Source of the DNA: an uncultured bacterium | Lineage (GTDB): Bacteria; Patescibacteriota; Minisyncoccia; Phycocordibacterales; UBA11359 | DNA length: 64,000 bases | Reading direction: 5' to 3' | Assembly: GCA_903831815.1 (NCBI GenBank) | Contig: CAIKZC010000001.1 | Location: forward strand, 85,037 to 149,036 | Part shown: one piece after another, positions 20,846 through 56,221 of the stretch | Layout of the letters: each line of letters opens with the position of its first letter | How positions within the stretch are numbered: position 1 is the stretch's first letter | Made by a program: the position numbers and the translations under genes | Notes under the pieces: generated by a model | Databases searched by the model: none | What the model saw: only the letters and a program-made list of their open reading frames with translations | What the model was told of the DNA's origin: nothing

Positions 20846-20955
20846 AAAAAAGCAAAAGGCACTTGCAGGGTGCCTTGCGCAGCGCGACTGGCGCGAGCAG
20901 AGCGGACGGCCAGCAGGCCGGAACGCGTGCATCCCCAAAGTGCCTTTTGCTTTTT
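20846..20955 (+). repeat. Element B copy 1: GC-rich about 75-nt conserved core closed by a 17-bp stem
   Basis: Closing stem AAAAAGCAAAAGGCACT...AGTGCCTTTTGCTTTTT. Core ttgcagggtgccttgcgcagcGCGCgactgGCGCgagcagagcggacGGCCagcaGGCCggaacgcgtgcatcc. Confidence 0.65.
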
Positions 20956-20965
20956 TATTCCCTTT

Positions 20966-22237
20966 TTAATACTCCCTCATCGAGATCTGCGCATCCACTT
21001 TTTTAGCAATATCAAGCACCACAGAAACCACGATTAGAAGGGCTGTACCGCCAATAGCGAGGTATGTGAGGCCGGTAACGGCTCGTAGCACAAGAGGCAA
21101 AACAGCGATAAGACCGAGGAAAATAGCGCCAACCATCGTAATACGTGTCAAAACAGTGGAAATATATTCTGCGGTTGGCTGTCCTGGTCGCACGCCCGGA
21201 ATGAAGGCGCCATTTTTCTGCAGGTTAGTTGAGAGCGTATGAGGATCAAAAGTTACGGCCGTGTAAAAATAAGTGAAAGCAAAAACGAGCAAGAAGTAAA
21301 CAGCAGCGTAAAACCATGGATTATTAAACAAAGCGAGTCCCATGCCGGCATATTGCGCAATCAAAGCATTAGAAAAATGAGAAAGCGCAGAGAATATCAT
21401 TTGTGGAAAAAGTAAAAGTGAAAGAGCGAAAATGATCGGAATGACTCCGGCTTGGTTAACGCGAAGTGGTAAGTAAGTTGAAGTACCACCATAAACTTTC
21501 ATGCCTCGCACTCGTTTAGCATACGTAACAGGAATTGGACGTTCTGCTTCGGTAACAATAACCACACCAAGAATTACGAGAACTGCGGCAACTACGAAAG
21601 CAATATAAAGCGGAAGTTGTGAAGGATCGTAAGCAAATAGAAATTGACTGATGGTACTTGGAATGTTAGCGATAATACCGGCGAAAATGATTAGAGACAG
21701 ACCGTTTCCAACACCAAATTCAGTAACTAGTTCACCAATCCACATCAGCAATACTGAACCGGCAATAATGACAACGAGGTTAATTAACATTGATCCGATA
21801 CCAAGAGTAGGTAAAACACCTTGTCGTTCAAGAAGGATCAAGAAACTGAAACCTTGAACTGCGGCGAGCGGCACTGTAAGCAAACGTGAATATTGGCTGA
21901 ACTTCTTGCGACCGGCTTCCCCTTCCTCCTGATACAACGCTTTGAGACGCGGTGAAAGAATAGTCAAAAGTTGCATTATGATAGAACCGGTAATGTAGGG
22001 ACCAACTCCAAGCATCACAATGGAAAGGTGTGACAATCCTCCTCCAGAAAAGACGTTAAAGAGACTTAACAATTGGTTGCTGTTAAGTAAGTTTTGCAAT
22101 TGAATAGTATCAATACCTGGTACCGGCACAGCGGCAAGTACTCGGAAAATCGCGAGGGCAATAACAGTAAAAATGATTCTTCGACGCAACGACGCATCCG
22201 CAAACATCATTTTTATTTTTTGGAAAGCGGTGTTCAT
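20966..22237 (-). CDS. secY: Preprotein translocase subunit SecY
   Basis: 423 aa with 10 TM segments and SecY N-terminal consensus. Confidence 0.9.
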   Translation of the reverse strand: MNTAFQKIKMMFADASLRRRIIFTVIALAIFRVLAAVPVPGIDTIQLQNLLNSNQLLSLFNVFSGGGLSHLSIVMLGVGPYITGSIIMQLLTILSPRLKALYQEEGEAGRKKFSQYSRLLTVPLAAVQGFSFLILLERQGVLPTLGIGSMLINLVVIIAGSVLLMWIGELVTEFGVGNGLSLIIFAGIIANIPSTISQFLFAYDPSQLPLYIAFVVAAVLVILGVVIVTEAERPIPVTYAKRVRGMKVYGGTSTYLPLRVNQAGVIPIIFALSLLLFPQMIFSALSHFSNALIAQYAGMGLALFNNPWFYAAVYFLLVFAFTYFYTAVTFDPHTLSTNLQKNGAFIPGVRPGQPTAEYISTVLTRITMVGAIFLGLIAVLPLVLRAVTGLTYLAIGGTALLIVVSVVLDIAKKVDAQISMREY

Positions 22238-22249
22238 TGTTGTTTTAAA

Positions 22250-22870
22250 TTATTTTGTTGAAGGCTTCTTGGTTTCTTTGGCAACATTAGCGGGGGCTTT
22301 TTCTTTCTTAACATCCTTTTTCACTTCCTTCTTCTCTTTTTTTGCCTCAGATTTTACTTCTGGTTTCTTTTCTGTTTTGACAGATGGAGTTGTGGCGACT
22401 TTCTTGGCTGGATTCACGCTAACTTTAGTCCAAAGTTTAATTGTACCACCAGCTTTTTCGATAGCAGCTTTTGCAGTTTCAGAAACTAAAACGTTTGAAA
22501 ATGTTAATTTTTTAGAAATTTCACCACCGAGAACTTTAATTGGCGCAACGGAAGATTCACGATATCGGATCAAATTAGCGAGTCGGAGTGTTGAAGGATT
22601 GACAGTATCCCCTGCTTTGAAAGCAGCCTCGATAGCAGTCAAATTAACAGCCATTGGTTTCTCCACAATTCCACGGTTGCTGTTTTTGCCACGACCGCGA
22701 AGTTTTGGGATACGCTTGATCATATCTCGAGCTTCCGGACGAATCTTGTGACCTGAACGAGCCTTTTGACCTTTGGTACCACGACCGGAAGTCTTGCCAC
22801 GTGTGCCTCCACGACCGACAGAAATGCTGCGTTTATTTTTGTGTATTCGTCTAAAAAGTATTGTATCCAT
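22250..22870 (-). CDS. rplO: 50S ribosomal protein L15 with a Lys-rich C-terminal extension
   Basis: GRGGTRGKTSGRGTKGQKARSGH... Confidence 0.85.
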   Translation of the reverse strand: MDTILFRRIHKNKRSISVGRGGTRGKTSGRGTKGQKARSGHKIRPEARDMIKRIPKLRGRGKNSNRGIVEKPMAVNLTAIEAAFKAGDTVNPSTLRLANLIRYRESSVAPIKVLGGEISKKLTFSNVLVSETAKAAIEKAGGTIKLWTKVSVNPAKKVATTPSVKTEKKPEVKSEAKKEKKEVKKDVKKEKAPANVAKETKKPSTK

Positions 22871-22876
22871 GATGGT

Positions 22877-23614
22877 TTATTTAGTCTTTGGGGCTACTTT
22901 TACTGGCGCGACTGGAGCAGCTTTCACTTCACTAGCTGGAGTAACTTTTATTTTTGAAGGCTTCAAAGTGGCGAGAGCCATGATTGTGGCGCGAGCAATG
23001 TTAAGTTTGTTCTTGCTTGGAGAAACAATTTTGGCTGAAACATCGGAAATACCGGCAAGTTCAAAAATATCTCGAATCGCAGAACCGGCGATCAAACCTC
23101 TGCCCTCTGCAGGACGGATCACGACACGAGCACTTGAATATTTCAAACCAACTTCGTGAGCAATTGAATTTCCTTTAACCAAATTGACTTTGATAACATT
23201 CTTGCGTGCATTTTTCAAAGCTTTGTCGATAGCAAGTGCGGTATCAAGACCTTTTCCAGTACCAACACCAACTGAACCTTTGTGATTTCCGATAATGATA
23301 GCGACAGAGAAACTGAATCGTCGTCCGCCGGTAACCACACGCACGACACGTCGAATATTTAAAATACGTTGATCGAATTCTGATTTAACTTTTTCTGGAC
23401 GAGGACTTCGGCGACCGGTATTTTTCTTGAATCCGCCTGAGCCACCATCACGTCCGCCACCAAAACCGCTTGGCATACGAGGACTATTTCCCGTACCACG
23501 AGATACTGGAGCAGTCGAAGCTGGAGCTGAAGTTGCAGGAGCAGCAGGAGTTGAAACTGGTGCTACTGGAGCAGCTGGTGCAGGTGTATTTGTTTTTGGT
23601 GTAGTATTTTCCAT
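22877..23614 (-). CDS. rpsE: 30S ribosomal protein S5 with an Ala/Pro-rich N-terminal extension
   Basis: ...RVVRVVTGGRRFSFSVAIIIGNHKGSVGVGTGK... Followed directly by rplO, with no L30 gene between. Confidence 0.85.
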   Translation of the reverse strand: MENTTPKTNTPAPAAPVAPVSTPAAPATSAPASTAPVSRGTGNSPRMPSGFGGGRDGGSGGFKKNTGRRSPRPEKVKSEFDQRILNIRRVVRVVTGGRRFSFSVAIIIGNHKGSVGVGTGKGLDTALAIDKALKNARKNVIKVNLVKGNSIAHEVGLKYSSARVVIRPAEGRGLIAGSAIRDIFELAGISDVSAKIVSPSKNKLNIARATIMALATLKPSKIKVTPASEVKAAPVAPVKVAPKTK

Positions 23615-23620
23615 AATGTA

Positions 23621-23971: not shown

Positions 23972-23974
23972 ATA

Positions 23975-25089: not shown

Positions 25090-25149
25090 AAAAAAAGCCT
25101 GAAAAAAGCTTGGGTTTCATCCTAACAAGAAGCAGGTTTAAAGTCAACA

Positions 25150-25262
25150 GAAAGCGCTGCCAAGAGCACCCTTTACAGGGTACGCGTAATTTTCTGCTGA
25201 AAATTCGCTCCGACTCGGCGCCAGTCGCGCCTCGTAGCCCCTGTAAAGGGCGCTCTTGTCCG
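25150..25262 (-). repeat. Element B copy 4, inverted orientation and diverged
   Basis: Closing stem GAGCACCCTTTACAGGG...CCCTGTAAAGGGCGCTC. Reverse complement carries GGCGCgactgGCGCC and ATTTTCagcaGAAAAT hairpins with the same loops (gactg, agca) as copies 1-3 but different stems, and ACGCGT is shared. Confidence 0.55.
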
Positions 25263-25297
25263 CTCAATCAATAGACCTTAAAATCCAGGTAAAAGAA

Positions 25298-25361: not shown

Positions 25362-26222
25362 TCAGCCCGCCTTGAGGACATCGAGCATATCGAAGGCTTG
25401 ACCACGGATACCAAGCTCGATCTTCTTGGACAAGAACCTCAATGCTTTTAGCGCACCTGCAACATAAGGAGCGCGCCCATTGATGTTGTGGAACAAGCCA
25501 ACTCTCACACTTCCATCAGGCGCGCAGAGAGTATACTCGTGCCAACCGTGACCGCCAAGATATTCCGGCGGAACGCCCAGCAAATGTTGCTGTACGACTG
25601 GATCACGAATCATCCCGATATCTTCCACTGTGAACGGAGCTCCAAGACGAGCAAAAGAATCCATAAAGGAAATGGCTGTACCACTCGGATCTTTTTTGCC
25701 TTTCTGATGGCTTTCAACCACGGCCGCCTCGAAACCGGCAAAAACGCCGGGAAACATCTTGGCCGCCATCTGAAAAGTCGCGTGAAGTGCCACGACCTCG
25801 GCTGCCATATTAGGAGCAATGACAGCACAGGTCCGCGAACACTCAACTGCCCGTCGCAACTGAATTCGATCTCCTCCAGTCGTCCCCATGATGAATGGGA
25901 TCCAGTTTTCACAGAAGAACTCTACGTTGCCGTTGACCGCGTCTGGCTGGGAAAAATCGGCGACCACAACCGTACTTTTTTGTTCCGTCCGCATATAACT
26001 AATATCGGCTAGTGCAAGTTTCCGGTTTTCGGGGCGCACCAAGGAAATGCCAGACGCCGCGTCTTGATCTTCGGTTATCTCCGGACCAGTGAAGGCGAAA
26101 TTCGCCAATTCAAAATCATCCGGACACCGAAGAATCGCTTCGCGAAGCAAACGAGACATCTTGCCGGGAAAACCGCTGAGGATAACCACCGTCGGCTTCT
26201 TGGTCGTACTCGTACCACTCAT
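25362..26222 (-). CDS. dapB: 4-hydroxy-tetrahydrodipicolinate reductase (start at MSGTST preferred; the ORF extends to 26273)
   Basis: VVILSGFPGKMSR (NAD(P) binding); ESHQKGKKDPSGTA (DapB E-HH-K-D-PSGTA signature); GTTG. GC about 55%, against about 38% for the flanks. Confidence 0.8.
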   Translation of the reverse strand: MSGTSTTKKPTVVILSGFPGKMSRLLREAILRCPDDFELANFAFTGPEITEDQDAASGISLVRPENRKLALADISYMRTEQKSTVVVADFSQPDAVNGNVEFFCENWIPFIMGTTGGDRIQLRRAVECSRTCAVIAPNMAAEVVALHATFQMAAKMFPGVFAGFEAAVVESHQKGKKDPSGTAISFMDSFARLGAPFTVEDIGMIRDPVVQQHLLGVPPEYLGGHGWHEYTLCAPDGSVRVGLFHNINGRAPYVAGALKALRFLSKKIELGIRGQAFDMLDVLKAG

Positions 26223-26372
26223 ATCGCACCTCTTCCTGTAAAAGTTCTGTGAAAGGACATTGAAACTAAACAATTTCTAGCAGAGAAATGCGACGAAGTC
26301 AATACTCGTCGTTTTGTATAAAAAAAGAAAGGACCCTTGCGCTTCGCGCAAGGGTCCATGAAATCTCTGCTA

Positions 26373-27665
26373 TCAAGTCTGCAACATCTCATGGCTAGCT
26401 TCACGAAGCGTTCGCCACAAGTCTTCCGTCGTTTCGGCCCGACGGATCTGTTCGACCATACCATCCTCATGACGCAGAAGCTCCTGCGGAGCGGTGCGTC
26501 CATTGTAATTGGACCTCATCGCAATACTATGTGCTCCGGCTTCATGAACGACGATAATGTCACCAAGCTCGATGAATGGCAGAAGTCGCCGAGTGGCAAA
26601 CCGATCGGTGTTTTCACACGCTGGTCCAACAACATTCACTCGGTACAGCTGACCTCCCTTCACTCTTCCGGATGGATCCAAAACATCAATATGATGATAC
26701 GCACCATAAATGAATGGTCGTGGAATCGAAGCCATCGGACAGGCGTCGACGCCGATATGCGTCTCATAAGTATCCTTGCGATTGATGACCTTGGTCACCA
26801 AGGCGCCGTGAGGACCGGCCATGAATCGCCCGTTCTCCATAAATAAAGACGGGGCCCATCCATGAGCAGTATTGAAATCCATCAGAAGTCGTCTGGTTGC
26901 CGACGTCAATCTCTGGGTATCGAGCGGCTGCTGACTGGGTCTGTAATTCACTCCCCAACCACCACCGACGTTTATGTACCTGCAGCGCTTACCAGTAGCC
27001 TTCTCCAACACTTCGCAACGCTCAAGAAGCATCTTGGTTGTCGCGGCGTGGTATCGCCAGTTGCGCTGATTGGAGCAAATCATCGAGTGGATGCCGGAAG
27101 TTGTGGCACCCGCATTGAACGCTCTCTTGTATGCCGGAACGAATTGCTTGTCAGTCACACCATATTTGGCTTCCTGAGGTTTGCCAATAATGGAGGTACC
27201 TTTTCGTGCCCGACCGGGGTTGAAGCGGAAACAGATGTGGTCGGGGAAATTTTTCCCCATGGACTTACAAATACGCTTTACGGGTTCGACCATGGAAATA
27301 TCATCCAGATTCAGAATGACACCCATGTCGAGTGCTGTCTTAAATTCCTCGGTCGAGGTGTTGTTGGAAGTGAACATAACATCACAACCGGTTGCACCAA
27401 CGGAAGCTGCAAGCTGCAACTCGTGAACAGAACTGCAGTCAAAGCCGAAACCCATACTCCGCATTACTTTCATAATCGAATCGTTGGGCAAAGCCTTGAC
27501 AGCAAAGAATTCCTTGAAGTTAAAGCCCTCAAAGGCTGTATTCAGACAGAGACCGGTTGATTTGATTCCCGCCTCATCATAGATGAAAGCCGGTGAACCA
27601 AACTTGGCGATGATTGTCGGAACATGCGGATAAAGACGACGCTTGAATGACTGCGACAGTGGCAT
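26373..27665 (-). CDS. lysA: Fold-type III PLP-dependent decarboxylase, probable diaminopimelate decarboxylase (ORF extends to 27710)
   Basis: FAVKALPN (PLP-Lys region); ...GPACENTDRF... Flanked by GC-rich terminators (GGACCCTTGCGCttcgCGCAAGGGTCC at 26328-26356). Confidence 0.6.
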   Translation of the reverse strand: MPLSQSFKRRLYPHVPTIIAKFGSPAFIYDEAGIKSTGLCLNTAFEGFNFKEFFAVKALPNDSIMKVMRSMGFGFDCSSVHELQLAASVGATGCDVMFTSNNTSTEEFKTALDMGVILNLDDISMVEPVKRICKSMGKNFPDHICFRFNPGRARKGTSIIGKPQEAKYGVTDKQFVPAYKRAFNAGATTSGIHSMICSNQRNWRYHAATTKMLLERCEVLEKATGKRCRYINVGGGWGVNYRPSQQPLDTQRLTSATRRLLMDFNTAHGWAPSLFMENGRFMAGPHGALVTKVINRKDTYETHIGVDACPMASIPRPFIYGAYHHIDVLDPSGRVKGGQLYRVNVVGPACENTDRFATRRLLPFIELGDIIVVHEAGAHSIAMRSNYNGRTAPQELLRHEDGMVEQIRRAETTEDLWRTLREASHEMLQT

Positions 27666-27857
27666 GAATGCCTCCTTATGATTCTCTGAAAAAGACCTTT
27701 GACAGAACATCTGCCAATTTAATCTGTCCGAATACTACATTTTGAATTAAGGTGTGTCAATAAATAAAAATGCAAAGAAAAACCCGCCGTTTCCTCGGAG
27801 GAAACGGCGGGACTATTCATGAAAGAACCGATCACAAAACGAACGTAGGCCCAGCGA

Positions 27858-29072
27858 TTAGTACGCGACGCTGGCCTTATCGAACGCCTCAGCGATCCCG
27901 TTCGCGTTCGCGAGCACATCGTTAACGACGGCATAGCGAATATATGGATTGAACGGCACACCAAGCACACCAGTGTTCTCAAGCATAAGCCGATTGAAGT
28001 GCTCGGCATCTGTAATCACCTGGCCGAACGCCATCTTCGGCGTCTGCCAGAGAGTGAAGAAACCAGCCTGCGGGGTGACCGCGAGCTTCATTCCTCGCGG
28101 ACGCAAGATGCTGATCAAGGCACGGATGCGCTGATGATACAGCACCTGGGTCGCCTTGACCTCATCCATCCCATTTTCGAGTTGCTCGAGAATACCGATG
28201 GCGGCGAACGCGGCGAACCCGCTGTCTGCATCACCCTTGATGCGGGCGATGTCGTCAATGAAATCCGCGCTACCCACCATGGCACCAATTCGCCAACCAG
28301 TGAAGTTGCCGGCCTTGGAGGCCGAGAATGCTTCCGCCCAGGAAAGACCTGGGAATTGGCATGCGATTTGAGCAAGAGTCGGGTGACCAGATTCGTGAGT
28401 CACCAATGTGTAGGCCGCATCATTGACAAGCCTGATATCACGCTGTTGGCAATAACCGCACACGTGCCTGACCCAATCCTCATCCATCGCCCTCCCCGAA
28501 GGGTTGTGTGGAAAATTCATCATGACCAGACAGCGACCAACCTCCCGCTCCGTCGTGATTTGATCGAGCGTAAAAAGGAAACCGTTGTCTGGGCTCAACT
28601 TCAGAGCAACATGAGAAATATCGGAACCATACACCTCAGACCAATACGCCGGGGTAGGATAGCCGGGGTCGGTGCATGTGAACACTGTGAGATAAGGTGT
28701 GTCACGCGCCACCGCCCCACACGCGAGCGGAATGAGACCGAGCATCGGCTTGATGCCCGGAATCGGCAAATACCCCAAACCCTCAACATCGTCGAGGCAG
28801 TCGCCAACGTGGCAACGCACAAAACGCTTCGCGAAATCAGGAATCGGCAAACAGCCGTTGTCCTGGTATTCATGCATGTTCTGATCGCGCGACATCACCG
28901 CTTTCGCCGTGGCCTTGCAGGCCAGTTCGAGAGCCGGGCCACTTGGCTGACCGATCGAGAGATTGATGACCTTGACACCTTTCTCTTCGGCCGCTCTCCT
29001 TATGGCCTTGTTACGTTGAAACACGTTGCCCGGCGCAGCCGGCAACCACGATGTGAGAGTTGACTTCGCCAC
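27858..29072 (-). CDS. Class I/II aminotransferase, probable LL-diaminopimelate aminotransferase (DapL-like)
   Basis: PLP-Lys motif SASKAGNFTGWRIG; N-terminal NLSIGQP; adjacent to dapB and lysA. Terminator CCCGCCGTTTCCtcggAGGAAACGGCGGG at 27783-27812. Confidence 0.55.
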   Translation of the reverse strand: MAKSTLTSWLPAAPGNVFQRNKAIRRAAEEKGVKVINLSIGQPSGPALELACKATAKAVMSRDQNMHEYQDNGCLPIPDFAKRFVRCHVGDCLDDVEGLGYLPIPGIKPMLGLIPLACGAVARDTPYLTVFTCTDPGYPTPAYWSEVYGSDISHVALKLSPDNGFLFTLDQITTEREVGRCLVMMNFPHNPSGRAMDEDWVRHVCGYCQQRDIRLVNDAAYTLVTHESGHPTLAQIACQFPGLSWAEAFSASKAGNFTGWRIGAMVGSADFIDDIARIKGDADSGFAAFAAIGILEQLENGMDEVKATQVLYHQRIRALISILRPRGMKLAVTPQAGFFTLWQTPKMAFGQVITDAEHFNRLMLENTGVLGVPFNPYIRYAVVNDVLANANGIAEAFDKASVAY

Positions 29073-29199
29073 TGTGAGATCTCCTTAATTTGCAACGAAC
29101 CTTAACAGAGAAAAAGCCCTGTCAGCTTTATGGACAAAGTGTCCTACTTCCGGTTCAGAAACTAACATTTTAAGTGCAATGAGTCAATGTCTAACAAAA

Positions 29200-29232
29200 A
29201 ACCACCTTCGGCAGGTGGTTTTTTGTTTTTTA
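29200..29232. terminator. Bidirectional terminator downstream of rplE (AAAAAACCACCTtcggcAGGTGGTTTTTT)
   Basis: Same AAAAAACCACC...GGTGG form recurs at 43986-44012 and 56165-56200, each at an island junction. Confidence 0.6.
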
Positions 29233-35552: not shown

Positions 35553-35700
35553 TAAACACTATTAATACTTTAATTGTATACTTGTCAAATATTTAGGCTA
35601 CGCAAGTTATCCACAGGGGGGATAAAATGTTTTATTTAAAAAAACTCCGCATAATCGTCTTTTGGACTTTTACACGGAGACCTTTCCTTCCAGCGAACGA

Positions 35701-36315: not shown

Positions 36316-36390
36316 ATGAAAAGACCTTAATTAGAACTCTTTCGAGAAATTATCACTAAATATCAAATTCGTCAAACGGAAACACAAAAC

Positions 36391-37038: not shown

Positions 37039-37085
37039 GCCAAAAGCCTAACAAATGGAGATAAAATATTAATAAAATCCAGCTA

Positions 37086-37384: not shown

Positions 37385-37405
37385 GGCCAAAAAACTAAAA
37401 ACTAC

Positions 37406-38029: not shown

Positions 38030-38034
38030 GGTTA

Positions 38035-38574: not shown

Positions 38575-38668
38575 AAAATTATTCTAATATTTTTGATTTA
38601 TCACCAACTGTAATTGTACCAAAAAGAAAGGCCGGCGGAAAACTAATCTTTACTTTTTTAATATTATA

Positions 38669-42405: not shown

Positions 42406-42557
42406 CCCTTACATTATAACTTTTATAAGTTTTTCTGGGAAGGGCTATTTTCAATATTAACTAATGATAAGGTCTTTTGGAAAAATATTTTTTAATCAAC
42501 ATGGCTAAAGAAATATTTATACAATCAACAACATTTTTTATTTTCTTTGTAAATTCA

Positions 42558-43244
42558 TTAAAATGGCTTTGGATACGACTTCATTGGTCCAATAATTTCA
42601 TAAAACTTCTTTAAGTTAACGATAACAGATCCATTATTTGAAAAAATTTTCTTTTTGTGTAATACAGATAAGTCGATGTCGTCTTGGGAAAAATTATCAT
42701 TTGCGACTACATAAAAAAGTTTACCAGAAAAGTTTTTATACTTATCAATTTTTATATTTATATTGTTTTGTAAATTAAGCATTGTATCAGTATTAAAAAT
42801 ATCAACACCAAAATTACCGTCTGGAGAATAAACATAAAAATCTACCCTATTTCTTGAATCATCAAAAATTTTCTCAGTATGTACGAAGACCTCACCAAAT
42901 TTATTTTTTAAAATTCTCTCTAAAGCCAACTCACTGGCACGCCCCCTTTTATTAACACGGAGAGCTATCTCACTCCTAAATTTACCTTTTCCAAAATGAA
43001 CATCTTCATAACCTAAAACCGAGCGCAATTGTTGCAAACCTCCAAATCTTCTTTCAATCATTTTCCGATTCGGCAAGAATTCAAATGAATCTAATTCTAT
43101 AGAACCTGGATACCTTCCGTTTAGTTCTTTAAAATATTCAAATCCGTCTTTAAGATTTTCAAGACTCCATTTCTCTCCAACAACATTTTTAATATTCTTT
43201 TTTAAATTTTTATATTTTTCCATTAGATTTAAATACGTAGCCAA
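42558..43244 (-). CDS. Hypothetical protein (228 aa) in the R-M island; possible nuclease partner
   Basis: Co-directional with the MTase. Weak PD-(D/E)xK-like pattern (VDFYVY...GVDIFNTD). Speculative. Confidence 0.4.
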   Translation of the reverse strand: MATYLNLMEKYKNLKKNIKNVVGEKWSLENLKDGFEYFKELNGRYPGSIELDSFEFLPNRKMIERRFGGLQQLRSVLGYEDVHFGKGKFRSEIALRVNKRGRASELALERILKNKFGEVFVHTEKIFDDSRNRVDFYVYSPDGNFGVDIFNTDTMLNLQNNINIKIDKYKNFSGKLFYVVANDNFSQDDIDLSVLHKKKIFSNNGSVIVNLKKFYEIIGPMKSYPKPF

Positions 43245-43270
43245 GCAATACTATATTTGAACTATTTTAA

Positions 43271-43780
43271 TTAGTAAAAACAGTTAAATATAGGAGTTTT
43301 TGTTAGTAGTGAACTTAAAATTGCTGTTGCTACAGCTGAACCGATACCAACAAGAATAGCTAACCAAAAATTCCTTTGTTCTTTGCGCTGTTCGTTTGTT
43401 TTATACCCATTATTTCTAAAAGCCAAAAGACCGGACTGCATTTCAACCTGCCAACTCATTGCATAATCTTTTGTTCCAAGCTTATTAAGATAAAATATTG
43501 GACCAAAAATAGCTTCATCCTCTTTTCCAAGATTAAATTTAGTAAATCCATTGAAAATATTCACACTCTCACTTCTACGGTTTCTGGTTATTGAAATAAG
43601 TTTTTCTCTTTCTAAAAAATCTAAGGTATAGAAAATACCATCAAGTTCCTTTAGTAATTCCAACAAATTTGGTTTCAAATGTTCAAAATTATTGAATCCT
43701 TTTTTCTCAGTTAAAAGCTGACCAAGAAACGGTTCTCTTCTCGTTAGAATTAAATCTACAAGTTTCGTATGAATTTCCAT
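43271..43780 (-). CDS. Hypothetical protein (169 aa) with a C-terminal TM helix
   Basis: ORF with C-terminal hydrophobic segment LAILVGIGSAVATAILSSLL. Confidence 0.4.
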   Translation of the reverse strand: MEIHTKLVDLILTRREPFLGQLLTEKKGFNNFEHLKPNLLELLKELDGIFYTLDFLEREKLISITRNRRSESVNIFNGFTKFNLGKEDEAIFGPIFYLNKLGTKDYAMSWQVEMQSGLLAFRNNGYKTNEQRKEQRNFWLAILVGIGSAVATAILSSLLTKTPIFNCFY

Positions 43781-43864
43781 GTGTTTTAAATTATTTTAAC
43801 TCTACTACTTTTACAGTGAACTACAAGTATCTAATGGGATATGATTTTGATTTTACACAAGCGC

Positions 43865-43966
43865 GAAAGACCGTGCCTTGCAGGGTGCCTCGCACAGGCC
43901 GACTGGGCCGAGCGGAGCGGACGGCCAGCAGGCCGGAACGCGTGCATCCCTAAAGGCATGGTCTGT
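43865..43966 (+). repeat. Element B copy 2
   Basis: Closing stem AGACCGTGCC...GGCATGGTCT. The core has GGCCgactgGGCC where copy 1 has GCGCgactgGCGC, a compensatory change. Followed by the terminator AAAAAACCACCtttcGGTGG at 43986-44012. Confidence 0.65.
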
Positions 43967-44011
43967 AGCGCTTTTGTGACAACAAAAAACCACCTTTCGG
44001 TGGCTCTTTGT

Positions 44012-44863
44012 TTACTTCCCACTCTTTGCCTTCCCCACTCTCCTTCTCGTCACAATCAAATGATTTGAATATCTCTTTGCTCGTCGTGACTTCTGTCCCT
44101 TGCCCGTTGGCTTGCCGTAAACAGACTTTGCGCGTCGAGTTCCTCGTCCCTGTCGTCCTTCACCTCCTCCGTATGGATGGTCAACTGGGTTTTGAGCAGT
44201 ACCTCGAACGGTTGGGCGAATACCTAACCATCGACTTCGTCCTGCTTTACCAATATTGATCAATCGGTTTTCCTCGTTGGAAACAACACCGATAGTTGCG
44301 AAACAGGTATCGATAACTCGTCGTACTTCAGTTGAAGGCAACTTTAGGTGCACATATCCGGCATCGTGAGCAATAACTTCAACGAAGTTACCGGCAGACT
44401 TTGCAAGTCGTGCGCCACCATTAGCATTTACTTCAACGTTGTAAACGAAAGTACCGACTGGAATGTTCTTGAGCATCATTGAATTTCCAACTTTGATCTC
44501 GGCTTTTGGCGAAACAATGAACTCACTGCCAACTTTCATACCTTGTGGAAGTACAACGTATCGTTTCTCGCCATCTTTGTATTGAGCGAGAGCGATGAAG
44601 GCTGTACGGTTTGGATCGTATTCAACAGTCATGAGAGTGGCAGGAATATCTCGTTTGTTATATGTAAAATCAACTTCTCGATAGAGTCGTTTGTGTCCTG
44701 ATCCCTTATGACGTGTGGTGATAATACCTCGGTTGTTGCGTCCTACAGCACGTTTGAAGCCATGAGTAAGTGATTTCTCAGGGTCGTTCGTAGTCACGAT
44801 CTTGTTAAATTCGATCGTGGTCATCGCTCGTCGAGGGATACTGGTTGGTTTATATGATTTCAT
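44012..44863 (-). CDS. rplB: 50S ribosomal protein L2
   Basis: ...GRNNRGIITTRHKGSGHKRLYR... Confidence 0.9.
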   Translation of the reverse strand: MKSYKPTSIPRRAMTTIEFNKIVTTNDPEKSLTHGFKRAVGRNNRGIITTRHKGSGHKRLYREVDFTYNKRDIPATLMTVEYDPNRTAFIALAQYKDGEKRYVVLPQGMKVGSEFIVSPKAEIKVGNSMMLKNIPVGTFVYNVEVNANGGARLAKSAGNFVEVIAHDAGYVHLKLPSTEVRRVIDTCFATIGVVSNEENRLINIGKAGRSRWLGIRPTVRGTAQNPVDHPYGGGEGRQGRGTRRAKSVYGKPTGKGQKSRRAKRYSNHLIVTRRRVGKAKSGK

Positions 44864-48209: not shown

Positions 48210-48592
48210 ATATTTATTGGTGAGTTGGTTCGCTATTAAGCAGGATGCACGAGATGTTTACCCTGTCCGATAGCTAACGCTCAAATTTACTTCTAGTTAA
48301 TAATGATGCTTTCAATTACTGCAAAAACCGGCCAATGGCCAGCGCCGTAAAATGAAAACAGCGCATAAAATGCGTATTTGATATAGTAGCAGATACGAAA
48401 TAATAGTCAATGGGAGCAGGTTTCGGCTGTACCCTAATAGTGCACAGGTTACGCACTTCCAGCTTAAATTTGCTTTTATGCTATTGACTTCCCTATTTTA
48501 CACTGTATTATCCAAGCAGAAATCTCGACCGTCAATGTGATGGTTGTGATTGCACACAAATAACTCTTTGTAATGAATGGAAGGAGCCAGCT

Positions 48593-49054
48593 ATGGCAAG
48601 TCACAAGGAAATCGCGGCGATTAAGAGCTACATCGTTAACGCCCCGAAATCAAAGTTTGATACCGATGCTGCCGCCGTCGCCTTGGGCATGCAGATTATG
48701 TTTTACCTGATCGCCCAATCTGAAGAGTTTGAGACGAGCGTTCGTATCAACCTCCAAGGAAATACCAAGACCAAGGAACGATTAGACGGGGCTTGCAATT
48801 TTATGACTCGCGTCGGCAAATTCAACCACGGCCTCAACGCAATGCTGCGGGCCGCCGGCACCAATCGTCGCTTTGAAGGAATTTCTGTTGAACGGGGTCA
48901 GTACATATTCTCTTTCAAGCCATTTGATGTTTCCCCTTTCGAGGTGGACAACATCCCCCGCGTCAACTTCGATGAACTTACAACGATCGTCCTCCCCACA
49001 ACTGGGCTCAATCCTGTGACAGAACAGGAGCGAGTCACGGTTGCTCAGGTTTGA
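48593..49054 (+). CDS. Hypothetical protein (153 aa), an opposite-strand insertion between fusA and tuf
   Basis: Consensus-like promoter TTGACT-16-TATTAT at about 48486-48514. RBS AAGGAG. Terminator CCCACCGaaactctCGGTGGGcttttttt at 49088-49125. GC above background. Confidence 0.5.
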   Translation: MASHKEIAAIKSYIVNAPKSKFDTDAAAVALGMQIMFYLIAQSEEFETSVRINLQGNTKTKERLDGACNFMTRVGKFNHGLNAMLRAAGTNRRFEGISVERGQYIFSFKPFDVSPFEVDNIPRVNFDELTTIVLPTTGLNPVTEQERVTVAQV

Positions 49055-49147
49055 GAATGCATCGAGCTCAAACTGCCGCGCACCAAAACGCAAAACCCAC
49101 CGAAACTCTCGGTGGGCTTTTTTTATTTGCTTTTTTTGTTTTACTTT

Positions 49148-51292: not shown

Positions 51293-51721
51293 ATAATAAT
51301 AATTAATAAGCTAAAGCTTTTTTTGACGTCACTCGGACGGATATGAGAATAAGACTCTCATATCCGTCCTCATTAGTCAAAATAAAAAAGGGCGTTGACC
51401 CTACTAATAAGTACCCGTGATTGTAGCGTAAAAGGTTGAAAGTGTAAAGAAAACGGATCCCCGAATCAATTACCTGCTATAATAATCCCAGATTGGTTAT
51501 ATTGAACGGTTACGGCTTTTCAAGACCTTTTGGACTCATGCATATTGAGAGCGCGGACGGTTACGGCTTTCCACGGAGGATATGCATGGTAGTCAACAAA
51601 AAAGAAAATACTTGGTGCGACGTGTTGGTTGATTTTTGATCACATATAAAATACAGTCCGGTCTCTTCCATTTTTTTTGGACTAGATGGACAGTGGAATA
51701 GATGACACGTCGCACAACACC

Positions 51722-51846
51722 GACTCTAACGGCAACCCGAACGTTTTCAATCTCGAACACAACGATGATGGTTTGTGGCTGAACAACAATTGGGCGAAAC
51801 CCGACAATGAGTGGAATCCGAACAACAAGTTCGCGTTCCGTCTCCG
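51722..51846 (+). repeat. DGR template repeat (TR), 125 nt
   Basis: Aligns with VR 53314-53438 (minus strand) with about 27 mismatches, all at TR adenines, plus one synonymous G/A. Followed by hairpin CCGCGAttttacaagTCGCGG at 51862-51882. Confidence 0.85.
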
Positions 51847-51868
51847 AAACTGTTTTCTTTCCGCGATT

Positions 51869-52216
51869 TTACAAGTCGCGGTTTTTCTTTTCTGGATTTA
51901 CCAGACTTTTCTTCCAACCACCAAGCATTTTGCCAACATCTTCAAGTTTCAGGGCAACATCTTCATATTGTTTGTCAGAAATGAGCTTACCCTCCCACGC
52001 AACCGAAATCAGAAACTTCAAGGTATCCAGAATCAAAATACATTTTGAAATCTTTTCCAATTTCTTTTCTTTTTCTGTAAAATAAGCAATATAAGCCCAA
52101 TCGAGCAAATCAAGAAATTTATTTTCAATTCGAGAGCCAATAGTATAACGAGACCCTTTAGCAATATGAGGAACAATGTTAACCCAAACCAAATACCCCT
52201 CTTTGATTCTATTCAA
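51869..52216 (-). CDS. avd: DGR accessory variability determinant (Avd, four-helix-bundle family)
   Basis: 115 aa. C-terminal ...LKLEDVGKMLGGWKKSL and N-terminal YLVWVNIVPHIAKGSRYTIG match the bAvd/four-helix-bundle family pattern. On the strand opposite to the RT, overlapping the RT ORF 5-prime end. Confidence 0.65.
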   Translation of the reverse strand: MNRIKEGYLVWVNIVPHIAKGSRYTIGSRIENKFLDLLDWAYIAYFTEKEKKLEKISKCILILDTLKFLISVAWEGKLISDKQYEDVALKLEDVGKMLGGWKKSLVNPEKKNRDL

Positions 52217-53285
52217 AATCGAGGCGTTATCGAGAGAGAGAGAGAGAGAGAGTAAACTGCGGTTTGGTCATATCTATGATGATATCATTTCTATTAAAAA
52301 CTTGCTCATAGCATGGCGCGAATTTTTGCGCAACAAACGCGACCGAAAAGATGTCGAAAGATTTTCACTTCATTTAATGGATAACGTGTTAGCGCTTCAC
52401 CGTGAACTTATAAACAAAACTTACCATCACGGACACTATAAAGCTTTCAAAATCAATGATCCAAAACCCCGTGACATTCACAAAGCGAGTGTTCGGGATC
52501 GACTTTTACACCACGCAATTTACCGAATTTTATATCCATATTTTGATCCTAAATTTATTTTTGATTCGTACTCCTGTCGAAATGTTAAAGGCACGCATCG
52601 TGCCGTAAATCGTTTTCGTAAATATGCTCGCAAAGTTTCAAAAAACCACACCCGAACTGTTTGGATTTTAAAATGTGATATCAGAAAATTTTTTGCCAAT
52701 ATTGATCACAAAATTTTACTAGATATTTTAAAACGACGCATGAGTAATAAAGACACTGTTTGGTTACTAAATGAAGTTATTAAAAGTTTTAACACTAAAA
52801 ATAAATCGGATGTTGGTTTGCCGCTAGGCAATCTTACCAGCCAACTTCTTGTGAATATATACATGAATGAATTTGATCATTTTATCAAACGAAATTTGAA
52901 AATTGCTTATTATGCCAGATATGCAGATGATTTTATTGTTTTGCACGAAAACAAAGAATATCTCAAGGGTATTCTGCCAACAATATCAGAATTTCTAGAA
53001 ACACACCTAAAATTATCACTCCATCCAAACAAAGTTTCCATAAAAACAATTTCTTCTGGAGTCGATTTTTTAGGCTGGGTCAGTTTTCCACACCACAGAG
53101 TTTTACGCAACTCTACAAAAAAGAGGATGTTCAGAAACTTAAATCGAGATCCGAAAAAAGAATCTTTGGCCTCTTATCAAGGACTCTTAAGTCGCGGCGA
53201 TACACATAAATTGAAACAAATGATATCAGAAAAATATTTCGAAAAGAATCAAAGAAACCAAGAGCCAAAGGTTCAGAAAAATTAA
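52176..53285 (+). CDS. DGR reverse transcriptase; true start uncertain (may lie downstream of the (GA)10 tract)
   Basis: RT motifs: LKCDIRKFFANIDHKIL (motif 2), GLPLGNLTSQLLVNIYMNEFD (motif 4/B), YARYADDFIV (YxDD catalytic), LHPNK...GWV. Confidence 0.85.
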   Translation: MLTQTKYPSLILFKIEALSRERERESKLRFGHIYDDIISIKNLLIAWREFLRNKRDRKDVERFSLHLMDNVLALHRELINKTYHHGHYKAFKINDPKPRDIHKASVRDRLLHHAIYRILYPYFDPKFIFDSYSCRNVKGTHRAVNRFRKYARKVSKNHTRTVWILKCDIRKFFANIDHKILLDILKRRMSNKDTVWLLNEVIKSFNTKNKSDVGLPLGNLTSQLLVNIYMNEFDHFIKRNLKIAYYARYADDFIVLHENKEYLKGILPTISEFLETHLKLSLHPNKVSIKTISSGVDFLGWVSFPHHRVLRNSTKKRMFRNLNRDPKKESLASYQGLLSRGDTHKLKQMISEKYFEKNQRNQEPKVQKN

Positions 53286-53297
53286 GAGTAAAAGACT

Positions 53298-55142
53298 CTA
53301 AGTTTTAGACTTGCGGAGACGGAACGCGAACTCGTAGCCCGGATCCCACCCAAAGCCGGGCATCGCCCAAGCGCTGTACAGCCATAAACCAACACCGCGG
53401 CGTTCGAGATTGAAAACGCACGGGCTGCCGTCAGAGTCGGAGATTTGTTTCATACCAACAACAAACCAGTCACCTAAAGGCTGATTTTTATATTGCAGAC
53501 GATAATTAGGTCCTGTATCGGCGGGACACAATTCCAACCCAAGGGCTTGTGCTCGTTCATAAATTTGATCAGTTGTGGCGTTTGTTTTGAAACCAAGATC
53601 AGCAACCGTTAAACGAATCAGTGTGGCAGTTTCAATATTTTTGCCAGTCACAAATTCACGACTTTTGAGCATAAATTCGACATTATCAGAAATTTTTATG
53701 CCATCTTTTTTCAATTCACTTAATAAGTGTTCACCAGTTTTGCCTCCTATCTCAACACTTTCTCGGCTAATTTTCTTTTCCGGAAAGGAAGTGTAAACGT
53801 GTTCAAGATTGTCTGGTAGTTTTTGGAAAATACCGGGTTCGAGTTGTCCGACATATACCTTGGTGTTTTCATTTATTTGACTTGGAACGTGTGCAATCTG
53901 TTCTTTTGTGCACTCAAAGATAACCAACACGTCTTCTTCAACATTTCTATTGGTTCGTAATTCGACAATACGTGGGTCACGTTCGTAACCAAAACCTTCA
54001 ATCGGTGTGTTAATTTCGTAGAGAAAAATCAAATCATCTTTGGTAAAGGCTTCGCCTTTTTCGTGTTTTTGATCCAAAGCAGTAAGCTTTTTCATGTCCT
54101 CACTTTTTTTGCGATACGCATCGGCTTCCGTGCCAAATTCTGCAAGCTTAGTATCCAATACCTCCTGAAAAATTGGTTCAACATCTTGATGGGGTAGAAG
54201 CCCGCGGATTTGACCGATTTGGTTGCCAGTCATTTGGATTGCGAGGCGTGGCTGAGTGGGATTGCCGTCATTGTCGTAAGTATAATAAACATAAAAATCT
54301 CCTTGCTTGTTGTAGCTGTGCGCAGTTGCCTTGCCTTCAATACACCAACCAGCTCCACCTGTCTTCCCTTCCACAGATTGCCATAGTCTATCAGCATCAT
54401 TAGAATTGTTAGCTTCATATTTTATCCACGTTCCTTGTATTTCTTCCTTATTTTCGATTTTGGAAGCCAGAGAGCCGGCAATAAAATCGGCATATAGAGC
54501 TGGAAATTTCTTGGAAAAATTTTCTCGTATTTCCAGGTCTTTCAGATTTTTGTTGTCATTTTTAACTTTTTCGTAAATATCAAGTATTTTTGCCAACGCA
54601 GCTCGGTTGATATCAGGGAAACGACCCACGGTTGATTCGGTACGAGACTTGAACTTACCTAGTTCTTTGTCGAATTGCGAAAGCTTAATTACCTGATTCC
54701 AAACGTAGTATTTAAACCAAGCAGGGTAAGCAACGTCTTCTTTAGTGAGATAATCCATCCATGTATCGAGAGAGTGCTTCTGATCTTCAATTGCTACATC
54801 CATCATCTGCTCGCGCACGTTTTCAGGAATTACTTCTACAGGTTGCCCACGTTCTCGTGCGATACGTTGCTGAAGTTCAAAATAGCTTTCGGGGAAATTA
54901 TCACGCTTGATTAGCAACGCGTCATATATTTTGTCGCGAAACATTTCAATGTTACGTTCACGTTTTTCTGTATCCGGATTGAGAAAAATATTTTCCAGTC
55001 TATCCATATATGCTTCTATTCTTGCGGTTGGATCATTAGGAACACTTTCACCGGTTCGTTGTTCCTGACGTTCTACTGCACGTTGCACCTCAGGTGAGGT
55101 TTGCAATTCTGGGTTTTTGATATGAAGCGGAAATTTTTCCAT
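53298..55142 (-). CDS. DGR target protein (614 aa) with the variable repeat in its C-terminal 40 aa
   Basis: C-terminus ...SPCVFNLERRGVGLWLYSAWAMPGFGWDPGYEFAFRLRKS is the diversified counterpart of TR-encoded ...NVFNLEHNDDGLWLNNNWAKPDNEWNPNNKFAFRLRN (Asn AAC codons in TR). VR 53314-53438. Confidence 0.8.
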   Translation of the reverse strand: MEKFPLHIKNPELQTSPEVQRAVERQEQRTGESVPNDPTARIEAYMDRLENIFLNPDTEKRERNIEMFRDKIYDALLIKRDNFPESYFELQQRIARERGQPVEVIPENVREQMMDVAIEDQKHSLDTWMDYLTKEDVAYPAWFKYYVWNQVIKLSQFDKELGKFKSRTESTVGRFPDINRAALAKILDIYEKVKNDNKNLKDLEIRENFSKKFPALYADFIAGSLASKIENKEEIQGTWIKYEANNSNDADRLWQSVEGKTGGAGWCIEGKATAHSYNKQGDFYVYYTYDNDGNPTQPRLAIQMTGNQIGQIRGLLPHQDVEPIFQEVLDTKLAEFGTEADAYRKKSEDMKKLTALDQKHEKGEAFTKDDLIFLYEINTPIEGFGYERDPRIVELRTNRNVEEDVLVIFECTKEQIAHVPSQINENTKVYVGQLEPGIFQKLPDNLEHVYTSFPEKKISRESVEIGGKTGEHLLSELKKDGIKISDNVEFMLKSREFVTGKNIETATLIRLTVADLGFKTNATTDQIYERAQALGLELCPADTGPNYRLQYKNQPLGDWFVVGMKQISDSDGSPCVFNLERRGVGLWLYSAWAMPGFGWDPGYEFAFRLRKSKT

Positions 55143-55143
55143 A

Positions 55144-55365
55144 TTATTTTATTTTCTTAGCAAGCTCACGCAAGTCACCATAAAGAACTTTTCCTTCTCC
55201 TAACTCGCTTTCGGCTTGGAGAACAGCATTAACCGCCTCGTCCTCAGCAAAATGATCGAGAGCTTTGTGTACAACTTCAACTTTGTTATTTGCATTTCCA
55301 GCTTTTATATAGGCCGCAATAAAGGCTTCTTGTTTTGCGGTAATTGATATTGATAACGTAGTCAT
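55144..55365 (-). CDS. Ribbon-helix-helix (ParD/CopG-like) small protein, translationally coupled (TAAtATG) to the DGR target
   Basis: 73 aa. TLSISITAKQEAFIAAYIKAGNANNKVEVVHKALDHF aligns with ParD-family antitoxin ...[33 protein letters not shown]. Confidence 0.5.
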   Translation of the reverse strand: MTTLSISITAKQEAFIAAYIKAGNANNKVEVVHKALDHFAEDEAVNAVLQAESELGEGKVLYGDLRELAKKIK

Positions 55366-55414
55366 ATATTTTTATAGTATTGCCACATTATACTATAATA
55401 CGCCGTAAATAATA

Positions 55415-55445
55415 CAGGAAATCTTGAGGTCGCAATTTGCGACCT
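55415..55445. promoter_or_regulatory. 30-nt perfect palindrome ATCTTGAGGTCGCAATTTGCGACCTCAAGAT between ORF6N-2 and the RHH gene (terminator and/or operator)
   Basis: Core GGTCGCAATTTGCGACC is identical to the core of the 36752-36780 palindrome. TATAAT at about 55388 (minus strand) lies downstream of it. Confidence 0.5.
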
Positions 55446-55467
55446 CAAGATTTACTAACAAGCTATT

Positions 55468-55974
55468 TTACCCATGAAAACCAATTCTCGGTTTTTCCTT
55501 CTCTTTTGGTTGAATTGGAGGTTCCATAAGTTGTTTTATAGCTCGAAAAACAACTTGAAAATGTTGATCGTATTTTTTCTCCAACTCATCCAATCGACGA
55601 ACCAAGTCTTTGTTAACAGAAAGAATTTGGCGCAATTTTATAAAAGTCCTTACTATTGCCACACTCATAACAATAGCTTGTGGACTGTTTAATACGTTAG
55701 CCGCCATCAATGCACCATGCTCAGTAAATGCATATGGCAAGTAACGACGCCCGCCATAACTTGAGGTCACAAATTGTGACCTCAAGTTTTGCACTTCTTC
55801 CAAACTCAACTGAAACATAAAATCTTCAGGAAAACGATCAGGATTCCTTTTAACTGCCTGATTTAAAACCTTTGTCTCCACACCATACAAATTTGCCAAA
55901 TCCCTGTCCAAAATCACCTTTTGATTACGAATAATTAAAATTGCCTGTTCTACCCTCTCCAGTTTTTTATTCAT
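55468..55974 (-). CDS. ORF6N-domain (KilA-N-like) protein, paralog 2
   Basis: ...IRNQKVILDRDLANLYGVETKVLNQAVKRNPDRFPEDFMFQLS...LRSQFVTSSYGGRRYLPYAFTEHGALMAANVL. The LRSQFVTSS motif is encoded by the 27-nt perfect palindrome CTTGAGGTCACAAATTGTGACCTCAAG (55769-55795). Confidence 0.8.
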   Translation of the reverse strand: MNKKLERVEQAILIIRNQKVILDRDLANLYGVETKVLNQAVKRNPDRFPEDFMFQLSLEEVQNLRSQFVTSSYGGRRYLPYAFTEHGALMAANVLNSPQAIVMSVAIVRTFIKLRQILSVNKDLVRRLDELEKKYDQHFQVVFRAIKQLMEPPIQPKEKEKPRIGFHG

Positions 55975-56048
55975 CCCAAAACCGTAGCATTTTGGAGATA
56001 AAATATTTATAAAATCTATTTGATATTTTTTATATTTTATTTAATGCG

Positions 56049-56149
56049 GAAGACTATGCCTTGAAGGGTGCCTTGCGCAGCGCGACTGGCGCGAGCGGAG
56101 CGGACGGCCAGTAGGCCGGAACGCGTGCATCCCAAAAGACATAGTCTGC
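56049..56149 (+). repeat. Element B copy 3
   Basis: Closing stem AGACTATGCC...GACATAGTCT. Core near-identical to copy 1, with GGCCagtaGGCC. Followed by terminator AAAAAACCACCgagcGGTGGTTTTTT at 56165-56200. A TTGATA-17-AATGCG promoter-like sequence sits upstream at about 56009-56040. Confidence 0.65.
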
Positions 56150-56221
56150 AGCATTTACATACAAAACAAAAAACCACCGAGCGGTGGTTTTTTGTTTTGT
56201 ATTTATGTTTTTGCTTTCAGA

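Follow-up and report, generated by a model that had tools for sequence, protein, structure and literature searches.

A conserved branched intergenic element of Paceibacteria and the variable seams of the ribosomal gene cluster

The window analysed here, a 64-kb stretch of DNA from an uncultured bacterium of the Patescibacteriota (positions 85,037–149,036 of contig CAIKZC010000001.1), carries a str/S10/spc ribosomal protein cluster interrupted by blocks of other genes (islands), together with a GC-rich repeat, element B, that occurs at the junctions between islands and ribosomal genes. The original prediction for this DNA held that element B marks, or mediates, insertion of the islands. Our analysis points, with moderate confidence, to another reading: element B would be a lineage-specific subfamily of a dispersed, multi-copy, structured intergenic element of Paceibacteria, situated at the 3′ ends of transcription units, and it would not insert the islands. 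This reading draws on the structure of the element, its strand polarity, distribution and positions, its independence from the islands and the exchange of its apex, each of which was observed directly.

Architecture, polarity and distribution of the element

All six copies in the window share one architecture, in which a long outer stem (P1) is closed by a three-way junction. The P2 arm presents an internal loop (G-N-A / G-A) and the loop C-GAC(U)G-G, followed by GAG, and the P3 arm presents a bulged A and an AGCA tetraloop; the consensus structure line was drawn by hand from these window copies. Stem sequences vary between copies with pairing kept, and P1 (median 28 bp) has a sequence specific to its site, within an element of median length 121 nt (copies measure ~110–150 nt). 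A covariance model run with its filters off recovers exactly six family members in the 64 kb, in the orientations +,+,−,+,+,−:

12963–13083, plus strand: family member outside the original prediction, 79.1 bits, between the convergent genes rplT (12106–12450) and RNase J (13087–14451)
20843–20959, plus strand: B-type copy with GC-rich apex, 76.3 bits, 8 nt from the secY stop codon with its 3′ side toward secY, stem flanked by A- and T-runs
25137–25282, minus strand: divergent family member, 68.6 bits, between the dapB terminator and rpsN, with AT-rich P3 and 5-bp P2b (−74.8 versus −60.1 kcal/mol)
43859–43973, plus strand: B-type copy, 67.7 bits, 3′ of rplB and its terminator, cargo on the element 5′ side
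56043–56155, plus strand: B-type copy, 70.2 bits, 86% identical to the copy at 43863–43969, 3′ of rpsG and a terminator, with a block of ORF6N and a diversity-generating retroelement (DGR) on the 5′ side
58144–58250, minus strand: family member outside the original prediction, 71.7 bits, 83% complementary to 12989–13070, its 3′ side 16 nt from the stop codon of rpmB (57886–58128, plus strand)

A 34-mer from the core of the element is found at three places with no more than one mismatch, compared with none expected, and a repeat finder groups 20848–20954, 43863–43969, and 56046–56152. An element does lie on one flank of each of the four islands, as had been claimed for element B, but only three of these are near-identical (20852–20958, 43867–43973, and 56050–56156); the supposed fourth copy (25152–25259) belongs to the same family, yet it lies on the other strand, differs in P1 and P3, and is not the same element. 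Two further family members lie elsewhere in the window (12973–13081, plus strand; 58144–58250, minus strand). The second stands at the edge of a NUDIX block, which lies on its 5′ side and is missing from the closest relative, whereas the first occupies an ordinary site, its 3′ side 4–6 nt from the RNase J stop codon.

The proposed pairing is well supported by covariation. In an alignment of 111 copies made by MAFFT from sequence only, 86.8% of cells pair (60.9% when shuffled, 38–52% when the partner is slid) and two-sided changes occur at 24 of 27 pairs; in a model-fitted alignment of 122 copies, the corresponding values are 89.4% and 27 of 27. The pattern used for searching fixed many loop positions, so that loop invariance among pattern-found copies carries little weight; the 18 copies found by the model only nonetheless keep C33, GAC, GAG, GA, and A-N-N-A, and among them the closing pair of the AGCA loop covaries from C-G to U-A. 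The sense strand is the more stable in 117 of 122 copies, by a mean of 7 kcal/mol (fixed windows), and G-U pairs outnumber A-C pairs by 86 to 42. Because of this G-U excess and the asymmetry in strand energy, we read the element as acting in folded, single-stranded form with one defined polarity, and most likely as RNA, although G-T wobble in DNA could also apply.

A degenerate pattern derived from the conserved loops was searched in one genome per species and matched at least 114 loci. Among the matches listed, ~105 are true copies, which come from lineages of the Paceibacteria/Parcubacteria (Nomura-, Kaiser-, Yanofsky-, Zambryski-, Giovannoni-, Taylor-, Niyogi-, and Yonathbacteria, Minisyncoccia, and metagenome-assembled genomes labelled Saccharibacteria), and ~8 are chance matches in high-GC genomes. 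The covariance model finds 116 copies in 99 loci; several loci (relatives' loci carry L-numbers throughout) hold two or three, often as adjacent inverted pairs (e.g. L153, L145, L172, L139, and L127), and one subfamily is conserved at full length, P1 included, at non-syntenic loci in 7 species. The specific element pattern has zero matches in 2.9 million viral contigs, from which we conclude that the element is not phage-borne; a looser DNA pattern returned noise only, among the matches listed from the same contigs.

Searching the whole window against Rfam 15 at gathering thresholds returned transfer-messenger RNA (tmRNA) and tRNA only, and three copies searched at E ≤ 10 hit only sub-threshold models of generic long hairpins (microRNA precursors). 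The element has no gathering-level score for any Rfam family, including hammerhead, twister, twister-sister, pistol, hatchet, hepatitis delta virus-like, Y RNA, 6S, signal recognition particle (SRP), and 5S. Hammerhead, group II intron domain 5, the SRP Alu or S domain, 5S rRNA, and the K-turn were also set aside on junction and loop sequence, as judged by eye.

Some copies show further features of their own. Those in L121, L141, L162, L166, L169, L192, L217, L231, and L132 form a subset, drawn from different genomes, with an extended outer stem sharing GAATTACGAAA ... TTTCGTAATTC and an internal loop CGAAGG / CCGAG, and another subfamily carries a tandem G-A loop, CUCGAGCGAACC / GGUGAGUCCGAG; these look like conserved non-Watson–Crick motifs within P1. 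Two low-scoring members (L294:4784–4905 and L294:19205–19317), in which the short P2b is replaced by a longer insert and P3 has a CACCAG loop, suggest that more divergent subfamilies exist that the present model detects poorly.

Ribosomal cluster seams in the window and in relatives

Pfam scans of the open reading frames (ORFs) uphold the view that the ribosomal cluster has canonical str/S10/spc order with foreign blocks at four points; an exact look-up of its SecY gave no record. The cluster is transcribed from the minus strand, from high to low coordinates, in the order rpsL, rpsG, a block, fusA, a gap of 0.9 kb that contains a single ORF, tuf, rpsJ ... rplB, an 11-kb block, rpsS ... rplE, an aminotransferase–lysA–dapB block, rpsN ... 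secY, a copper block, and adk, map, ndk, and RNase J. The corresponding junctions, or seams, were scored in 80 metagenome loci centred on rplB (L235–L314; 62–91% rplB identity), which were chosen regardless of the element. Interrupted loci, out of those scored, were as follows:

fusA/tuf: 19 of 20
rplB/rpsS: 36 of 59
rpsJ/rplC: 14 of 49
rplE/rpsH: 5 of 19
rpsG/fusA: 3 of 9
tuf/rpsJ: 3 of 40
rplC/rplD: 3 of 57
map/ndk: 1 of 2
secY/adk: 0 of 8
all other junctions: 0

The ribosomal cluster of Paceibacteria has fixed seams (fusA/tuf, rplB/rpsS, rpsJ/rplC, and rplE/rpsN) that hold fast-changing cargo; with highly conserved genes on either side, they resemble slots for defence genes or cargo. The cargo is heterogeneous (Pfam, 126 ORFs), with no recombinase among its 25 commonest families. 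Of 70 interruptions scored where the genes on both sides were present, only 3 contain the element (2 of 36 at rplB/rpsS), and the 80 loci contain 10 copies in 828 kb, compared with 6 per 64 kb in the window. Elements also stand alone. L190, which belongs to a set of loci chosen for having the element (the set includes L166, L163, L180, and L186), has one between rplE and rpsN and one between secY and adk–map–ndk–RNase J, and neither of these seams holds an island; solo copies also separate secY from adk in L294, adk from map in L237, and rpmC from rpsQ in L166. In L163, L180, and L186, the element lies beside RNase J as it does in the window, in varying orientation.

With the element in so few interrupted seams and solo elements at the same seams, nothing supports the proposal that it mediates insertion. 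That it marks islands is borne out within a narrower compass, for in the window genome and its closest relatives it sits where variable blocks border on conserved genes, on the side of the latter. Across the whole family, both findings that the original prediction had named as refuting it were made: interruptions occur without the element, and the copies lie mostly off the junctions, beside unrelated housekeeping genes (116 copies in 99 loci). The argument that four islands out of four could hardly carry the element by chance depends on the null model, the seams being the only roomy intergenic sites of the cluster.

Comparison with close relatives informs on the relative ages of element and cargo. 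L315/L316, whose EF-G is 94% identical to that of the window, have the same seams with different genes: a 946-aa ORF between rpsG and fusA, a Gp49 and helix–turn–helix toxin–antitoxin pair between fusA and tuf, and a Schlafen-like ATPase, MazG-like protein, helicase, and RadC after rplB. In these loci, the element lies 8 nt after fusA and 2 nt after rplB, both times antisense to the operon with cargo on its 5′ side; no element follows rpsG. In L235 (rplB 91% identical), the order rplB–terminator–element is that of the window, and the element (L235:933–1038) is orthologous to the copy at 43859–43973; the two P1 arms are homologous and carry compensatory changes, the apex is different (AT-rich P3), and the downstream DNA is unrelated. 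Since an orthologous element is shared by two loci with entirely different cargo, the element at the rplB seam is older than the cargo now found there.

The same comparisons document turnover of the element itself. Among 316 loci, only the window and L315/L316 have the B-type core, at differing seams (secY, rplB, and rpsG versus fusA). A fusA/tuf element is present in L128, L315, L294, and L295, unlike in the window, which has a plain terminator after fusA; the copies of L128 and L315 have the outer arms in common, but their apices differ in subtype and point in opposite directions. The apex acts like a module that can be exchanged and inverted on outer arms specific to the site; the number of copies and the content of their apices are dynamic, and the sites remain gene ends. 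All four islands and the NUDIX block of the window lie on the 5′ side of an element, a geometry that recurs in L315/L316, L235, L294, L295, and L234 and is broken by L297 and L128.

Gene-end position and competing explanations

Throughout the family, copies are strictly intergenic and their neighbours are unrelated housekeeping genes, no Pfam family occurring more than three times in 145 flanking proteins. No recombinase or transposase is found among the 25 commonest Pfam families of these 145 neighbours (Phage_integrase occurs in 2), and a tRNA gene is linked to 1 of 116 copies. Flanking genes are convergent in 32 cases, tandem with the element sense in 27, tandem and antisense in 22, and divergent in 17. 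Stop codons within 30 nt number 73 for 134 copies, 45 of them facing the element 3′ side and 28 the 5′ side, and convergent stops lie at a median distance of 13 nt. T-runs are seen in the 3′ arm of 43% of copies and A-runs in the 5′ arm of 41% (background 23%), with a T-run beyond the full stem in only 17 of 106. A replication-strand bias judged from flank GC skew is weak (75 versus 47, p = 0.012), and inspection by eye of the AT-rich flanks of one 7-member subfamily gave no convincing target-site duplication.

In the reading we favour, the element would occupy the 3′ ends of transcription units, usually a few bases from the stop codon and often replacing or standing beside an ordinary terminator hairpin, and its subfamilies would spread to new sites within a lineage. 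Within the ribosomal cluster, islands and elements would both occupy a small number of seams, which in this clade are hot spots of variable cargo in general, and they would co-occur because islands accumulate at the same few unit boundaries. The stem may function as a terminator, a 3′-end hairpin, or a boundary hairpin, and the cap could be read by a host factor. Cargo might be replaced when DNA is taken up and undergoes homologous recombination by way of the conserved genes on either side; Saccharibacteria have been shown to be naturally competent (PMC10633639).

Several observations weigh against this reading. No sense-specific promoter signal was found: scores 5′ of the sense and antisense sides are equal, and consensus scans round three copies were negative. 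Terminator-like U-tracts, which a standard terminator would have, occur in only ~40% of copies, and two window copies already have a separate canonical terminator between gene and element. The polarity of the cap is conserved, yet its orientation to neighbours is almost free, for which a simple bidirectional hairpin role does not account. No transposase, target duplication, or binding protein that would serve its spread was identified, and in the genus-level clade of the window the element is present at ~9–10 of 12 cargo seams by our tally, above what the seams alone predict.

Four other explanations have to be set beside it. The copies could be free-standing small RNA genes, each with its own promoter and making a stable RNA of ~120 nt whose cap binds protein and which ends at its own stem or at the terminator of the convergent gene, the co-location with islands being incidental. 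Strong covariation and one-strand folding would follow naturally, as would the lack of an orientation rule relative to neighbours and the facing of the 3′ side to convergent stops (as in small RNA genes that share bidirectional terminators); a terminator-like site after the element on the sense strand of two window copies and the conserved tandem G-A motifs, which are typical of protein-binding RNAs, fit as well. We nonetheless consider this unlikely, given that the sense side has no promoter signal of its own, that a protein-binding RNA would not usually have dozens of paralogues in one small genome, that a near-perfect stem of median 28 bp is atypical, and that inversion of the apex on fixed arms fits a repeat better. 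A purely selfish repeat resembling a MITE (a transposable element of the miniature inverted-repeat type), without host function, surviving where insertion is harmless and keeping its structure for its own propagation, would explain why subfamilies are conserved at full length at non-syntenic loci of different species, why B-type copies have burst in one lineage at different seams of close relatives, and why the window is so much denser in copies (6 per 64 kb) than the ribosomal loci of relatives (10 per 828 kb). Its apex is conserved and its termini are not, however; no terminal inverted repeats are common to the copies, no target duplication or parent insertion sequence (IS) was seen, the core is conserved over many family-level lineages (unusual for a MITE), and copies are packed tightly against stop codons, which together leave this explanation with little probability.

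The idea behind the original prediction, that the element is a recombination structure (attC-like or a transposon end) through which cargo inserts beside conserved genes, draws strength from the 5′-side geometry of the four islands and NUDIX block and its recurrence in relatives, from cargo that differs among close relatives while the element stays, and from a single-strand fold of conserved structure and variable sequence, as in attC sites. It is hard to reconcile with the near absence of the element from interrupted seams (3 of 70), with solo elements at the same seams, with the housekeeping neighbours of most copies, and with cargo exchange already seen in distant relatives that lack the element; Pfam finds no integrase or transposase in or near the islands, the stem base (where an attC-type crossover would fall) is not conserved, orientations are mixed, and L297 and L128 violate the geometry. 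We regard it as improbable, and likewise an attC-like or landing-pad role restricted to the lineage of the window. A more speculative scenario makes the three-way-junction apex a new small mobile module that copies itself, in either orientation, into terminator-type hairpin loops just after stop codons, possibly via an RNA intermediate or with the help of an unrecognised enzyme of the host or of the element; the resulting palindromes would act as fragile sites or landing pads that seed defence-rich cargo slots in the Paceibacteria ribosomal cluster. We would give this some weight, but on balance doubt it.

Extragenic structured repeats are known as a kind, among them the repetitive extragenic palindromic (REP), bacterial interspersed mosaic element (BIME), and REPIN elements of Proteobacteria (reviewed in PMC3733652 and PMC3337134) and hairpin-forming MITEs such as Neisseria Correia and enterobacterial ERIC/IRU elements (reviewed in PMC10969869); what is new is a cap conserved over many family-level Paceibacteria lineages, on variable stems and with a module-like apex. 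The literature searched describes neither the element nor the seam pattern, its coverage being incomplete and novelty therefore not proven. REPs are simple hairpins of 20–40 bp with a GTAG or CGTC head, species-specific in sequence and tied to RAYT transposases, and termination and protection of mRNA 3′ ends have been proposed as roles for REP/BIME. The element resembles REP/REPIN sequences as a high-copy extragenic palindrome located just after stops and between operon genes, in either orientation and often in inverted pairs, but differs from them in its length (~120 nt), its variable stems, and its three-way-junction cap conserved over many lineages. Membership of that class was rejected, the element being no 20–40 bp palindrome with a conserved head (median 121 nt, 28-bp stem, branched cap, stem bases not conserved), and neither the 25 commonest Pfam families of the 145 neighbours nor the window ORFs scanned include a RAYT (IS200/IS605-like Y1) transposase.

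MITEs have conserved terminal inverted repeats, generate target duplications, and derive from an IS; Correia/ERIC/IRU elements can carry terminator or promoter activity. The element is like the latter in being an intergenic repeat of 100–150 nt that forms long RNA hairpins and shows lineage-specific bursts, and unlike MITEs in having a conserved apex, non-conserved termini, and neither duplication nor parent IS found. A MITE assignment was discarded on the outer arms, which differ between B-type copies, the lack of a clear target duplication (the one 7-member subfamily, by eye), and the lack of a transposase among neighbours. In integron attC sites, the stem base carries conserved R boxes; the sites occur in co-oriented arrays and depend on the IntI integrase. 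The element shares with them single-strand folding, conserved structure with variable sequence, a variable terminal structure, and a place at the borders of variable cassettes; it was rejected as an attC site because its stem bases are variable, its orientations in the window run +,+,−,+,+,−, the islands have no integrase, and Phage_integrase accounts for 2 of 145 neighbours. Like intrinsic (often bidirectional) terminators, it lies right after stops with A/U tracts enriched at the stem base, and a plain terminator occupies an orthologous site in the window; unlike them, it has a 60-nt branched cap, conserved in sequence and of one polarity, and a U-tract in fewer than half of copies. The inverted terminal repeat of adeno-associated virus, a replication origin on linear single-stranded DNA, is similar in architecture only (a long stem tipped with two short hairpin arms); the sequences are unrelated, and the element is absent from the 2.9 million viral contigs.

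Islands and other features of the window, and their significance

The islands, gaps, and signals that adjoin the copies in the ribosomal cluster are the following:

16795–20802, minus strand: copper block at secY/adk, with csoR, a P-type ATPase (copA), DsbD_2-HMA, and a cupredoxin (Pfam)
20810–20838, minus strand: csoR promoter (TTGACA-17-TACACT) whose hexamers enclose a perfect palindrome, TACCCCCTAGGGGGTA; abuts the element 5′ end
25362–29072, minus strand: block of higher GC at rplE/rpsN, with an aminotransferase, a lysA-like decarboxylase, and dapB (Pfam); GC 0.48–0.57
29193–29232: CCACC...GGTGG terminator after rplE, of the same type as that of rplB; no element adjoining
33009–43780: 11-kb block at rplB/rpsS, with a DUF4082/beta-helix protein, ORF6N, S51 peptidase, His phosphatase, a fused C5+N6 methylase, and unannotated ORFs
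43981–44013: terminator hairpin of rplB, CCACC-TTTC-GGTGG; kept in L235 and hence part of the conserved flank
48210–49147: fusA/tuf gap, with a plain terminator directly after fusA, one unannotated ORF (48593–49054, plus strand), and no element
51686–55974: block at rpsG/fusA, with ORF6N and the DGR (Pfam, repeat finder)
56165–56197: bidirectional terminator hairpin after rpsG (repeat/hairpin finder)

The last gene of the copper block overlaps the adk start by 1 nt and the GC content of the block is native, so we do not take it for a fresh insertion; no relative scored interrupts this seam (0 of 8). The palindrome TACCCCCTAGGGGGTA within the csoR promoter region (20810–20841) is probably the CsoR operator. 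Island promoters abut the element in the window, and promoter-like sites precede the downstream ribosomal blocks (TTGACT-17-TATAGT before rpsS, TTGACT-17-TAGGAT before rpsN); as each downstream block has such a site of its own, we treat the ribosomal blocks as separate transcription units. The islands had been described as usually bounded by a terminator, which is correct for the CCACC...GGTGG hairpins at 43981–44013 and 56165–56197, though another at 29193–29232 has no element. The covariance model with filters off confirms that the fusA/tuf insertion is without an element copy, as had been stated.

The DGR (51686–55142) is complete, with a reverse transcriptase at 52176–53285 (plus strand) and an inverted pair of template and variable repeats (137 nt, 79% complementary) at 51713–51849 and 53311–53447; the variable copy forms the 3′ end of a 614-aa minus-strand gene that has no Pfam match. 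Two ORF6N paralogues (36391–37038 and 55468–55974) have 5′ ends that are 85% identical. An AT-rich motif, GAGATAAAATA(T/A)T.ATAAAATC, recurs 5′ of several minus-strand genes (36850–37079, 55810–56038, 60484–60527, and 62754–62797) and is possibly a shared promoter or leader.

Elsewhere in the window, a tmRNA (5548–5962) adjoins smpB (5008–5517). The tmRNA 3′ end and terminator are repeated at 7341–7384 (82%), and a 124-nt segment is repeated at 6014–6137 and 7395–7518 (95%), such that 5548–7518 looks like a small islet integrated at ssrA; Pfam finds no integrase domain in the 329-aa ORF it encloses (6215–7204). An array of small unannotated ORFs without Pfam matches follows at 7600–9760 (7612–7884, 8103–8477, 8724–9122, and 9341–9676), with repeats between them at 7899–7994 and 8508–8603 (91%) and at 9163–9206 and 9709–9752 (91%, a terminator-like hairpin AGCCGC...GCGGCT). 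ARAGORN identifies a tRNA-Ile with anticodon TAT at 2574–2648, an isoacceptor that is uncommon in bacteria.

The element family and the cargo-slot pattern are the results of main interest. An abundant covarying structure absent from Rfam 15 is a candidate new class of RNA or kind of genomic repeat, in a group (the candidate phyla radiation, or Patescibacteria) that accounts for a very large share of bacterial diversity, most of it uncultured, and from which few non-coding RNAs are known. The ribosomal cluster, usually treated as the most stable of marker loci, holds variable cargo in Paceibacteria, including restriction–modification, DGR, toxin–antitoxin, and Schlafen-like genes, and the pattern of its seams matters for binning, for phylogenomics built on syntenic ribosomal blocks, and for how genomes of ~1 Mb gain accessory genes.

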